DNA of 20,287 bases from Acidobacteriota bacterium. GTDB lineage: Bacteria > Acidobacteriota > UBA4820 > DSQY01. Made by a program: the position numbers and the translations under genes. The stretch's first letter is position 1. Each line of letters starts with the position of its first letter. Positions 1-20,222 of this stretch are shown here, piece after piece. The DNA is taken from NCBI GenBank assembly GCA_049967655.1, contig JBMFSH010000040.1, positions 1-20,287 of the forward strand. Direction: 5' to 3'. Under the pieces are notes generated by a model. It saw only the letters and a list, made by a program, of their open reading frames with translations. It searched no databases and had not been told where the DNA came from.

Positions 1-209
1 CGACGCTCCGCCCCTCCTTCCAGACGCTCCCTCTCAGGGCGGCGGTGGAGGGGGCCCCGGGACCGCTCTACTGGTCGGTAGACGGGAAGGTGGTGGGGGA
101 GAGCCGCTCGGACGAGGCCCTGGAGTGGCCGTTGGAGCCGGGCAGGCACGTGATCTCGGCGAGGGATGGCAGCGGCCACGGAGACCGGGTGGCGGTGGTC
201 GTGCGCTGA
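1..209 (+). CDS. pbpC: Penicillin-binding protein 1C, C-terminal fragment (5'-truncated by the window edge)
   Basis: Frame starting at nt 3 reads TLRPSFQTLPLRAAVEGAPGPLYWSVDGKVVGESRSDEALEWPLEPGRHVISARDGSGHGDRVAVVVR then TGA (207-209). The W-x-VDG...W-x-L-x-PG-x-H-x-I-x-x-x-D-x-x-G pattern ending in a beta strand is typical of the PBP1C C-terminal domain. Not in the ORF track. Confidence 0.75.
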   Translation, partial: TLRPSFQTLPLRAAVEGAPGPLYWSVDGKVVGESRSDEALEWPLEPGRHVISARDGSGHGDRVAVVVR

Positions 210-310
210 GGCCGGAGCTCGGCCGGGCATGCGCGACCGCACCGCCGGGGCCATTCGGCGCGGGAGCGCGCCTTCCTTCGCGCCGGAAGGCAGGCACTTC
301 AAGGGCGAGT

Positions 311-316
311 TACAAT
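311..316 (+). promoter_or_regulatory. Putative sigma70 -10 element (TACAAT) for the intergenic RNA
   Basis: TACAAT at 311-316 in an AT-rich patch just before the structured region. No convincing -35 or extended TG motif. Confidence 0.4.
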
Positions 317-321
317 CTTTT

Positions 322-628
322 TGGACAGCTATGATCTTCGGTCTTGGGCGGCTCTCCGGCAGGCGTCCGGTGCCCTAAAAGCCTTCGGCACGGCGTTCCA
401 CGGTGGTCGTGCCATTCTGACTTCAGCCGAAAGGTTGAGAGCGCACTCATACTCCAGACTGATTACAAAGGACCGGGCGTGCCCCATATTGTTGGGGACG
501 GTTGGGCAACCTTCACGCGGCGAAGGTTGCGCGGCACGAAGCAGGAACTCGCGCCGCTCGGAATGTGCCCTTACCTTACTCCTCGATCACGGCCTCCGGA
601 CTCGTTGCTCCGGAGGCCACCTTTTTTT
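322..628 (+). ncRNA. Candidate stand-alone structured non-coding RNA (~300 nt), family unknown
   Basis: Nested stems 332-336/585-589, 346-352/553-559, 356-360/501-505, 363-371/472-480, 387-394/406-413, 416-419/455-458, 423-428/433-438 (GAAA tetraloop), 482-486/493-497, 506-514/522-530. Several G-U pairs work only on the + strand. Flanked by a -10 box and an intrinsic terminator, and lies between convergent genes. Confidence 0.6.
591..628 (+). terminator. Rho-independent terminator
   Basis: Perfect 10-bp stem GGCCTCCGGA (591-600)/TCCGGAGGCC (609-618), 8-nt loop, then ACC and seven T (622-628). Confidence 0.8.
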
Positions 629-816
629 CGGACCCCTCCTGCCGGAGAAGCTCTCCGCCGCGCGGACTCGCCCGGACCAGGCTTCCAGCGCCGCGCCCAA
701 GGCACGGCCCAGCCTCAGCAGTGATCCGGAGCCGGCAGGGCAGTTTTTTTGAACAAGCATGCCCCTAGCCCATACCCTCATCACTCCTCCCTGCCACCAC
801 CATCCCCCGTCCTGCC

Positions 817-845
817 AAAAGGGCGGGCGCTGCGGCGCCCGCCCT
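817..845 (-). terminator. Rho-independent terminator of the M16 peptidase operon
   Basis: GGGCGGGCGC (821-830)/GCGCCCGCCC (835-844) with a 4-nt loop; AAAA at 817-820 gives the U-tract on the minus strand; about 27 nt after the TAA at 872-874. Confidence 0.75.
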
Positions 846-871
846 CGTGACCACGCTGGCCGCTTGCGCGG

Positions 872-3058
872 TTACTCTTTCTTGGGCTCGGGCGGCCTCT
901 TGAAGAGATCCTCGGAGAAGCTGGCGTTCAGGGTGACCTTGCTGAGCTTGGAGGAGGTCTTGACCTCGCCCTTCACCTTCTGGGAGGAGATCATGGGAAC
1001 TTTCAGTCCGGATGTCACCTGCCATCCATCGAACACCTCGGTGACCTCCTGCGGCCCCTCCTGGGTCTTGGCGCGCTGTTTCAGCCCGAGGATCGTCAGG
1101 CCGTCGGGAGTCAGGTAGAGAGTGACGGGCTGGCCCTCCAGCCGGACCACCACGGCCTGGGAGTCCTTCCCTTCGAAGAAGGCCTTGCCGAGCGCCTGGC
1201 CCTGTAGCTTGCCCTCCAGGACCTGCTTGAGCAGCAGGGCGCAGCCCGCCTCGCTGTAGAGGGCGCGGCGCATCTCGCCGACGGCCGATTCGGGCAGGTC
1301 CTTGACCGCGGGGCCCATCTGGAACCAGCCCCTCTCTCCGTCCAGCACCTGGGTCACGGTCCCCATGGGCGTGCTGGCGTCGGCGTGGAGGCGGTTCGGG
1401 AGCACGAGCACGCTCGTGCCCTTGATCTCCATCTCACCCATGGGGGTCTTGACCGTGGTGGCGCCCTCGATGGTCATCTCCTTGAGGCCCTTCAGAGCCT
1501 GCTCGCCGGCGGCGCGGGCGGTCTTCAGGAGGAGGTCCGTACCCGCCTTCAGGGTCTCGGGCGTCGGATCGGGAATTACCTCCTTGGGCTTCGGCTCGGG
1601 GATGGTGATGTCGATGGTGGTCACTCTGCCGAAGGTGGAGAGGGGCTGGTCGAACTCGGAGCCCCTTCCGATCGCCAGCATGGTGAGAGCGGAGGGGTCG
1701 AGCCGCTTCTGGGCCACCCGCAGGATGTCCTCCTTGGTGACCTTCTCCACGGCGTCGCGCAAGTTGGTGTTGAAATCGGGCGGGTAGCCGTAGAAGTCGT
1801 AGGTCATGAGGCGGTTGATGATCTTTCCGGTGGAGTCGAAGTCGAAGGCGTACCCGTTGAGGTAGCCCTCCTTGGCCTTCTTCAGCTCCCGGTCTGAGAC
1901 GGGCCCCTCCCGGATGGCCTTGATCTCCTCCAGCATGGCCGCCATGGCCTCGTGGGTGGTGGAGGGCTTGGTGGAGGTGAAGAAGAAGAAGGCGCCGGGG
2001 TGGTCGTAGCCCGGATTCATCCACCCGCCCGCCCCGTAAGCCAGCCCCTTCTGCGTGCGGATCTTGACGAAGAGGCGGGAGGAGAAGCCGCCGCCGAGGA
2101 TGTCGCTGAGCATGGCCACGGCGGGATAGTCGGGATCATCGAGGCGGAGCCCCAGCTCGCCCATCACCACGAAGGTCTGCTCGACGTCCTTCTTCTCGAT
2201 GTAGTTGACCGAGGGTTCCTGGGGGAAGATGAAGGGCTTCTGGATCTGGGGCTTGGGGCCCTCGGCCTTCCATCCCGCGAAGGCTTCGGCGAGCTTCTTC
2301 TGCATGTCGGCCGACTGGAAGTCTCCCCAGGCGGCCAGGATCACCTCGTCGGGGCGGTAGAACTCCTTGTGGAAGGCCACCATGTCCTCGCGACTGACCG
2401 CCTCCACGTCGTCGTACTCCACCTGGCGGGCGTAGGGGCTGCCGGCGCCGTAGACGAGCTTCAGGCTCTCGCGGCGGGCGATGCCCATCACGTCGTCGTT
2501 GCGGCGCGAGATGGCGCTCATGGCCTGGGTCTTGGCCAAGTCCAGCTTGTCCTGAGCGAAGGCGGGATGGGTCATGAACTCGGCGTAGAGCGGGAGCACC
2601 TGGTCCAGGTTGGAGGTCAGCATCTTCGCGGAGAGCGTGGTGTAGGCTTCGGAGGAGTCCGACTCGATCTCCGCCCCGATGCGCTCCAGGAAGAGGTCCA
2701 CGTCATCGCCCTTCATGGAGGCGGTGCCGCCCGAGCGCAGAACCTCCGCGTAGAGGCCCACCAATCCGTTGCGGTCCTGCGGCTCGGCCACGCGTCCGCC
2801 GCGGATCATGGCCTTGAGCTGGATGACGGGGATCTCGTGGTCCTCCACCAGCAGGATCTTCATGCCGTTCGGGAGGGTCGCCCGCACTACCGCGGGAGCC
2901 TTGATGTCGTGGAGCGGAGGGTAGGTGAGCTTGTCGATGGCCAACGGGGGGCGCTTGTCGCCTCCTCCTCCGGCCGGGGTTTTCTGGGGCTCTGCGCCCC
3001 ATGCGAAGGTCACGGCTAGAAGCAGTGCCGCCGCCGTGGCCGCCAGGCGTCTTGGCAT
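872..3058 (-). CDS. Secreted M16B zinc peptidase, non-catalytic subunit with an extra C-terminal domain (728 aa)
   Basis: Start moved to ATG 3058 (AGGAG RBS just upstream); signal peptide MPRRLAATAAALLLAVTFAWGA. M16 hallmarks TLPNGMKILLVED, FYRPDEVILAAWGD, ILGGGFSSRLFVKIRTQKGLAYG (R/Y pair). No HXXEH motif. Pro/Glu/Lys linker followed by about 230 extra residues. Confidence 0.88.
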   Translation of the reverse strand: MPRRLAATAAALLLAVTFAWGAEPQKTPAGGGGDKRPPLAIDKLTYPPLHDIKAPAVVRATLPNGMKILLVEDHEIPVIQLKAMIRGGRVAEPQDRNGLVGLYAEVLRSGGTASMKGDDVDLFLERIGAEIESDSSEAYTTLSAKMLTSNLDQVLPLYAEFMTHPAFAQDKLDLAKTQAMSAISRRNDDVMGIARRESLKLVYGAGSPYARQVEYDDVEAVSREDMVAFHKEFYRPDEVILAAWGDFQSADMQKKLAEAFAGWKAEGPKPQIQKPFIFPQEPSVNYIEKKDVEQTFVVMGELGLRLDDPDYPAVAMLSDILGGGFSSRLFVKIRTQKGLAYGAGGWMNPGYDHPGAFFFFTSTKPSTTHEAMAAMLEEIKAIREGPVSDRELKKAKEGYLNGYAFDFDSTGKIINRLMTYDFYGYPPDFNTNLRDAVEKVTKEDILRVAQKRLDPSALTMLAIGRGSEFDQPLSTFGRVTTIDITIPEPKPKEVIPDPTPETLKAGTDLLLKTARAAGEQALKGLKEMTIEGATTVKTPMGEMEIKGTSVLVLPNRLHADASTPMGTVTQVLDGERGWFQMGPAVKDLPESAVGEMRRALYSEAGCALLLKQVLEGKLQGQALGKAFFEGKDSQAVVVRLEGQPVTLYLTPDGLTILGLKQRAKTQEGPQEVTEVFDGWQVTSGLKVPMISSQKVKGEVKTSSKLSKVTLNASFSEDLFKRPPEPKKE

Positions 3059-3125
3059 GGGATTACTCCTCATGGTCATCCTCGTCTTCATCGTCCCGCC
3101 CCCTCACGTTCCGGGCGCGGGCCCG

Positions 3126-4646
<1,521 letters not shown>

Positions 4647-4740
4647 CCCATCCCTCCTTTCTTGGTTCCGTTCAGTTCCCCCTGCGCACCCGAGAGACGG
4701 GTGCGGTGTGACAGACAATCCCCTTCCACTGAGGAGGGCC

Positions 4741-4769
4741 AGACTATCACCCCGCGCCCCGGCGGGCAA
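4741..4769 (-). promoter_or_regulatory. Putative sigma70 promoter of the M16 pair
   Basis: Minus strand TTGCCC (4769-4764), 17-nt spacer, TAGTCT (4746-4741) with extended TGn. Confidence 0.5.
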
Positions 4770-4833
4770 GGGAGCAGAGGGGATGCGGGAGGAGAGACCT
4801 CTCGCGGCGGTGGTCTTGATCAATTGTCCCGGG

Positions 4834-4876
4834 AAACACAAAAGCCGAGGCCCCCTTTCTCAGCGGGGGCCTCGGT
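4834..4876 (-). terminator. Rho-independent terminator after the C1A protease gene
   Basis: 11-bp stem CCGAGGCCCCC (4845-4855)/GGGGGCCTCGG (4865-4875); minus strand continues CTTTTGTGTTT. Confidence 0.8.
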
Positions 4877-19899: not shown

Positions 19900-20222
19900 T
19901 CCCCTCTGGCTCCGCCTGCCGCCCGAGGAAAGGGGCGGTAGCAGGCCCGAACGAGCCGGAAGGCCCCCCTTCCGCCTCCATCACCAATCATCACGCGCGT
20001 CCAAAATAGACCGCTTTGCCGGCTCCGACCTACGGCTGGGTCCGGGCCGCGCCTTTGGCGCGGCGCTTGGGGGCTTGGTCCGGGCGCGTCCACGCCAGCG
20101 TGGCCGCGCTCCGTCCGCAGTCCCTCCGCCGCCCTTTGGGCGCCAGCCCCAGCCTCATCGAATACGAACCGTCCCCCCACCCTCCACGGGTGCGCCGGCG
20201 GCGACGGACCTCCTGCTGCGTC

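Follow-up and report, generated by a model that had tools for sequence, protein, structure and literature searches.

Genomic context of the locus

The DNA analyzed here (the window) is a stretch of 20,287 nucleotides on contig C40 of the 3.1-Mb, 67% G+C genome of an Acidobacteriota bacterium (G000). The locus lies between the penicillin-binding protein 1C (PBP1c, pbpC) gene upstream, which is kept beside it in all three congeners without being part of the element, and an M16 peptidase gene downstream (Table 1). An earlier reading of the same DNA, made from its letters alone (the sequence-only reading), had placed an RNA gene in this intergenic position facing a convergent gene, and the placement was borne out by the PBP1c stop at 209 and by the peptidase on the minus strand. 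On the minus strand, a GC-rich hairpin with a short run of T after it (820-845) probably terminates transcription of the convergent peptidase gene, and beyond that gene a second M16 peptidase is found on the minus strand (3126-4841) as two ORFs, the N-terminal domain at 4083-4841 and the C-terminal domain at 3126-4013, split or frameshifted near 4083. Our search of relatives' genomes found the locus in 3 of 3 congeners (G001, G002, and G003) and in none of the 37 other relatives searched; in G003, a long array of 7-nt tandem repeats lies 3' of the terminator (L003:1760-1950). Three RNA runs had zero coverage of positions 1-3200, coding genes included, and were hence uninformative on expression.

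Two pieces of a dispersed repeat flank the element. A longer copy on contig C3 (near G000:C3:100287-100680) has both pieces as its ends, with matching terminal sequences, and the repeat therefore looks like a MITE; a further fragment lies at about 19999-20153 of the window, and the upstream piece is deleted in G002. The hexamer TACAAT (311-316), formerly taken as the promoter or 5' end of a large RNA, is indeed present but falls within the upstream repeat end, and it occurs at the equivalent position neither in any of the seven other repeat copies printed nor in the G001 orthologue. On this comparison, TACAAT is a drifted repeat position, and the previously proposed 5' end is a repeat remnant.

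Table 1. Features at and around the locus, in window coordinates unless a contig is named
Feature	Position	Strand	Comment
3' end of PBP1c (pbpC) gene	3..209	+	PF06832 BiPBP_C, E 7e-13
End fragment of dispersed MITE-like repeat	249..337	.	15 other blastn matches in own genome, E<=0.01
Conserved 11-mer upstream of operator	411..421	+	With variants in 7/8 promoter families; absent from C3 family
Operator site 1, palindrome (predicted)	422..439	.	Center about -66.5; T423, C428, G433, A438
Operator site 2, palindrome overlapping -35 (predicted)	446..463	.	Center about -42.5; T447, C452, G457, A462
Weak -35 hexamer ATTACA	462..467	+	A and C at -32, -31 in 8/8 families; A at -30 in 7/8
-10 hexamer CATATT	485..490	+	Exactly 17 bp after -35
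Predicted small RNA, 132 nt	497..628	+	Start placed 7 nt after -10
5' hairpin of predicted RNA	506..530	+	Keeps 9, 9, and 8 of 9 pairs in congeners; in consensus fold
Second, weaker hairpin of predicted RNA	about 531-558	+	
C/U-rich tract, putative seed	568..584	+	Complementary to Shine-Dalgarno-like sequence
Intrinsic terminator	591..628	+	10-bp stem and T7; keeps 10, 9, and 10 of 10 pairs in congeners
Fragment, other end of dispersed repeat	660..761	.	24 other blastn matches in own genome
M16 peptidase gene, downstream neighbor	872..3091	-	Convergent to locus
Second small-RNA candidate (predicted)	G000:C3:73231-73405		L029:1546-1720; also L022, L024, L089

The region does not fold as one large RNA

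The sequence-only reading had joined nine helices into a single multibranched RNA of about 305 nt, possibly of a new class. All nine can pair as given, but the long-range ones are disfavored in the ensemble and broken in congeners. The proposed structure has an energy of -98.5 kcal/mol against -125.9 for the minimum free energy (MFE) fold (27 kcal/mol worse), and mean pair probabilities were 0.07 for 332/589, 0.00 for 346/559 and 356/505, 0.001 for 363/480, 0.013 for 416/458, and 0.50 for 387/413, the favored elements being local only: the hairpins 423/438 (0.90), 482/497 (0.99), and 506/530 (0.99) and the terminator (1.0). Compared with shuffles, 322-628 folds at z -2.10 on the plus strand and at -3.65 on the minus strand. 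The modest plus-strand value is due to the terminator, since z falls to the background level of -0.4 for 322-590 (70 of 200 shuffles fold as well) and 322-496 alone gives +0.7 to +0.81. The argument that G-U pairs mark a plus-strand RNA fails for the region as a whole because the minus strand folds better.

Comparison with the congeners points the same way. Pairs kept in the three congeners numbered 4, 3, and 0 of 5 for helix 332/589, 6, 4, and 0 of 7 for 346/559, 4, 4, and 0 of 5 for 356/505, 8, 8, and 4 of 9 for 363/480, 4, 5, and 4 of 8 for 387/413, and 2, 2, and 1 of 5 for 482/497, counts in which the G003 5' alignment is probably non-homologous. In G002, few or no pairs survive in four helices that draw on the 5' part, 387/413 and 482/497 are broken in all three congeners, and 416/458, 423/438, 506/530, and the terminator are kept. 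Sequence common to the genus starts near 408: positions 210-380 are almost entirely missing in G002 and replaced by different sequence in G003, though 338-407 is still 0.77 identical in G001. The best case for a large fold is helix 363/480, in which one pair is double-changed from T-A to C-G in two congeners, the sole covariation-like signal. The hairpin at 423-438, once described as GNRA-capped, is instead a palindromic predicted protein-binding site (operator site 1), with a TAAA loop in one orthologue and mismatched arms in paralogues, and the middle of the proposed RNA is reused as a promoter elsewhere.

A large multibranched noncoding RNA is thus not supported at this locus, which folds at background without its terminator and has no set of covarying helices; a 305-nt RNA starting from TACAAT is barely credible and largely refuted. 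What survives of the claim is an independent RNA, likely on the plus strand and ending at the terminator, with its size, start, and class revised. Three neighboring elements account for the supposed 300-nt RNA, namely a repeat tail, a promoter under protein control, and what is probably a regulatory RNA of ordinary kind, about 130 nt long, and the claimed new class of large structured RNA is thereby removed.

Known RNA families give no better account. Rfam 15 covariance models had no match in the window at the gathering threshold and only chance-level matches at E<=10 (best E of 0.12 within 150-900), and ARAGORN returned nothing in the window. The view that the element is not RNase P, tmRNA, SRP RNA, or a riboswitch held up; the genome's own copies of the three housekeeping RNAs are located elsewhere (RNase P on G000:C13, SRP on C4, and tmRNA outside the window). 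An IS110 bridge RNA, an omega/HEARO RNA, a group I intron, and a ribozyme, each weighed by its familiar motifs, were dropped, having neither an Rfam match nor a recognized transposase nearby.

A recurring operator-promoter module

The conserved core at 408-490 recurs at unrelated loci, and all aligned copies share one layout, two palindromes 6-7 bp apart followed by a weak -35 and, after exactly 17 bp, a -10. Both palindromes fit T-N4-C-N4-G-N4-A, and none of the eight motif positions varies among the 11 aligned copies. Eight unrelated families agree closely along the operator and the -35 (ATGACA, AAGACA, or similar in paralogues), conservation falls to about 0.18 within the spacer, and it recovers at the -10, where A at -11 is kept in all eight families and T at -7 in seven. 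The weak -35 explains why a consensus promoter scan missed this promoter. The motif is that of LiaR, which like VraR uses such primary and secondary sites (PMC7191749), and site 2 is one mismatch from the CesR box (PMC4447274), with 0-4 mismatches across the eight families. From these features, 408-490 is predicted to be a DNA operator-promoter of the LiaR/VraR/CesR type containing two putative binding sites. The operator coordinates assume a +1 at 497; a site centered at -42.5 is typical of activators contacting sigma70, and our literature search for NarL or LuxR sites at -42.5 returned nothing relevant.

Among the genomes searched, the module is confined to the genus. With a sequence model, 13 sites were detected across the four genus genomes (11 training and 2 new) and none in G004; a weight matrix run on both strands found only 2 sites in the host genome, and no score in the reversed genome exceeded 10 bits; and the exact operator pattern occurred in 4 of 401 phylum genomes, all in the host genus. 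Nine metagenome matches comprised one true copy, seven actinobacteria-like tandem boxes, and one intragenic site. At these seven loci (L087, L088, and L090-L094), which by eye seem to derive from low-GC actinobacteria, two similar palindromes stand in tandem in the space that separates divergent genes downstream of secA, probably as another NarL-type operator. Eleven matches in a viral scan were read as chance since all lacked the flanking module, and blastn found no match to plasmids and three chance pieces in phages.

Six promoter families precede unrelated, genome-specific genes whose N-termini resemble signal peptides by eye. In the congeners, the module precedes genes at L027, L028, L031, L032, L044, and L045, including one RHS-type-like protein (by eye), and two of the secreted-looking proteins had no NCBIfam family match. 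This distribution could also suggest that 408-490 is a recombination site or the end of a mobile element, with four recombinase half-sites carrying cassettes: the copies stand at variable loci before genome-specific genes, one RNA cassette has a different neighborhood in G001, and the inner inverted repeat with its 6-7 bp spacer is like the cores of tyrosine recombinases, which are built in this way. Against this stand the -10 at a fixed 17 bp in eight unrelated families, the orientation of every copy into a downstream gene or RNA, the exact fit to the LiaR motif, and the lack of a transposase or integrase recognizable by eye among ORFs within 1.5 kb, and we consider such a site highly improbable.

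A predicted small RNA of about 130 nt

The recurring promoter module makes a transcript of about 497-628 likely, and we regard its transcription as quite probable. The predicted RNA is about 160 nt in two congeners through a 27-nt insert, which falls in the loop of the 506-530 hairpin and spares its stem. At the 3' end, the terminator described by the sequence-only reading stood, with a hairpin at 591-618 and T7 at 622-628. No reading frame is conserved, as 1-nt indels between orthologues break every frame; a small ORF from ATG 564 was rejected, as it reads on across the terminator and carries a frameshift in G001. With a predicted promoter of its own, an intrinsic terminator, and no conserved ORF, the element has the attributes expected of a trans-acting small RNA (sRNA).

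Homologues of this RNA are restricted to close relatives. An RNA model searched in 30 class genomes gave strong matches only in the four genus genomes; seven weak matches in five other class genomes were terminators or coding DNA. A scan of 185,579 species genomes with the seed found 3 matches, all in Acidobacteriota. Across the four orthologues, 16 of 17 positions of the C/U tract are invariant, and the promoter, the C/U tract, and the terminator are 0.92-0.97 identical (0.73 for the terminator in G003), with the DNA on both sides deleted or replaced. The body of the RNA is 0.82-0.86 identical, above flanking intergenic DNA (0.50-0.60) and below four-fold synonymous sites (0.89-0.93), which the seed at 0.93 merely equals. 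Including the terminator, 497-628 folds at z -3.61; without it, z for the body is between -1.2 and -1.5 in this genome and ranges from +0.34 to -1.62 in the congeners, whose RNAs even at full length get no further than -0.8 to -1.15. Among the four closely related sequences available for comparison, none of 36 pairs is double-changed, so that the compensatory changes looked for in homologues did not appear; one-sided changes favor the plus strand in six pairs, and four breaks are A-C, which would be pairable on the minus strand.

Our most likely reading, which we favor by a modest degree over its opposite, is a response-regulator-activated, genus-specific small RNA gene of about 130 nt. A dimer of a NarL/LiaR-type regulator would bind the tandem palindromes, and the proximal one, overlapping the weak -35, would recruit sigma70 polymerase to the -10; transcription would begin near 497 and end at the terminator, yielding an RNA of about 130 nt. 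The C/U tract would then most likely pair in trans with ribosome-binding sites of mRNAs and block translation, probably with Hfq as a partner: Hfq is encoded in all four genus genomes, with two Hfq-like genes in each. An anti-Shine-Dalgarno role for the tract has, in our estimate, slightly better than an even chance. Positions 576-590 are unpaired with a probability of 0.87-1.0, and 566-575 are mostly paired. The two best predicted targets encode a PilT-family ATPase (pilT) and YbgF/CpoB (ybgF/cpoB). The signal is marginal: the best score of -36.4 kcal/mol compares with -29.9 to -36.0 for 23 shuffled seeds, the mean energy is no different, and scores in congeners are weaker (-28.7 to -31.7), in a scan of 2,293 ORFs and 3,687 start regions that used a crude gene caller and ignored target accessibility.

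The same data may be read as a real promoter with a functionless RNA, in which a cassette was left behind after loss of its cargo gene and the terminator mainly ends the upstream pbpC operon. This would be in keeping with the six promoter families that precede genes, with a body no better conserved than synonymous sites, weakly folded, and lacking covariation, and with the listing of no other plus-strand terminator from the pbpC stop to 591. It does not readily explain why promoter, C/U tract, and terminator are retained amid deleted or replaced flanks, why a 27-nt indel spares the hairpin stem, or why a second promoter copy also precedes a structured element that contains a C/U loop and no gene, and we think it unlikely. 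Alternatively, the small RNA may be real but bind a protein, as a Csr/Rsm-like sponge or a short 6S-like decoy, instead of an mRNA. The invariant loop CAGGAA and another stretch, GG(A/G)AUG, are consistent with this role, an orphan NarL-type regulator with two sRNAs recalls GacA-RsmY/Z, and 6S RNA (RF00013) was matched neither in the window nor in any of the four genus genomes (G000-G003), in a search that matched only 5 of 14 controls. Yet CsrA is encoded in none of the four genomes, GGA motifs are few with a single one in a conserved loop, the consensus fold consists of short hairpins without the long rod and central bubble that are the hallmark of 6S RNA, and the C/U tract is the best-kept part, all of which leaves a protein-binding RNA distinctly unlikely.

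A second RNA candidate and a candidate regulator

The only other operator in the host genome lies on contig C3, near 73186, upstream of a gene-less element of about 175 nt that we predict to be a second small RNA. This element, found four times, combines long stems with a loop rich in C and U and with a GC hairpin that no U-run follows; its z scores lie between -1.9 and -7.3, several changes between G-C and G-U pairs were seen, and in G001 its neighborhood is different. It had no Rfam match and was not found in G003, and the model of the 497-628 RNA matched neither it nor 17 other loci (0/18).

The host genome has two GerE-domain matches, one in an ECF-type sigma factor (by eye) and the other in the genome's only full-length GerE-domain response regulator, an orphan NarL-type protein encoded beside ftsK on G000:C56. 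Its closest solved structures are VraR (the nearest), NarL, and ChrA, and it scores below every NCBIfam equivalog cut-off, making it a regulator without a named orthologue. All three congeners encode orthologues with 75-87% identity, and the best match among the 26 other class genomes has 46%. This range matches that of the operator (4 of 401 phylum genomes), shared range among kin being weak evidence. No operator was seen beside the regulator gene in the weight-matrix scan. We judge the chances evenly balanced that this protein regulates the module. HisKA_3 kinases are the usual partner class of LiaS/NarX type; the host genome encodes none, and thus lacks the cognate kinase of a LiaRS system proper, and all three congeners have them at other loci. 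G001 also holds a paralogue of the regulator with 54% identity, 1.5 kb from similar tandem boxes: at L084:6520-6560 (G001:C244), tandem CTCACCC-N4-GGGTGA boxes lie at this distance from the NarL-type paralogue and its kinase and adjoin a hydrogenase-like gene cluster.

Relation to known regulatory systems

Taken together, these predictions offer a modest, testable lead in the Acidobacteriota, consisting of a predicted sRNA, an operator, and a candidate regulator; a literature search on small RNAs in this phylum found no paper. The operator would define a small regulon that also takes in the second sRNA candidate and genes for secreted proteins, and it shows that a LiaR box of the Firmicutes type occurs in a phylum far removed from them. 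One could extend this to a regulon specific to a genus of uncultured Acidobacteriota: a LiaR/VraR-like orphan regulator with no HisKA_3 kinase would drive two unrelated anti-Shine-Dalgarno sRNAs along with a shifting collection of secreted-protein genes gained by horizontal transfer, each arriving with the same portable promoter of about 80 bp, and the sRNA described here would damp translation of pilT (twitching) and ybgF/cpoB (envelope) during the program. We think this speculative picture rather unlikely to hold in full.

The module is like the LiaR, VraR, and CesR promoters of Firmicutes (PMC7191749, PMC4447274) in its two tandem T-N4-C-N4-G-N4-A sites, in a proximal site close to the CesR box, and in a candidate regulator nearest to the VraR structure. 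In contrast to those systems, the host belongs to the Acidobacteriota, the candidate regulator gene beside ftsK is an orphan, neither LiaS nor LiaF being seen next to it, this genome has no HisKA_3 kinase, and the predicted outputs are sRNAs and secreted-protein genes and not Lia envelope-stress genes.

A closer parallel in logic is offered by the CiaR-dependent csRNAs of Streptococcus, which were predicted from promoter and terminator logic and then confirmed by Northern analysis (PMC3091779). The csRNAs have an intergenic response-regulator site, a spaced -10, and a terminator, are 51-202 nt long with an unpaired anti-Shine-Dalgarno tract between stem-loops, and number more than one per regulon, features that the locus as predicted has in common with them. 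CiaR is an OmpR-family regulator acting on a direct repeat, whereas the locus has LiaR-type palindromes. Unlike in the csRNAs, the tract contains no CAU anti-start codon, Hfq is present, no sequence or Rfam match exists, and the two RNAs are dissimilar to each other under our model. Lacking both the CiaR direct repeat and csRNA sequence, the RNA does not belong to the csRNA family proper.

RsaE/RoxS act through a C-rich single-stranded seed against ribosome-binding sites. A seed of this kind, putative here, and control by a two-component regulator would be common ground between RsaE/RoxS and other C-rich sRNAs of Firmicutes and the predicted RNA, which differs in the regulator family and in having no Rfam or sequence similarity to them. 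GacA/UvrY are orphan NarL-family regulators whose main outputs include two small RNAs (RsmY/RsmZ or CsrB/CsrC), an arrangement like the one predicted here of an orphan NarL-family regulator with two small RNAs; the genus studied here differs in being without CsrA, in the few GGA motifs of the RNA, and in its operator sequence.
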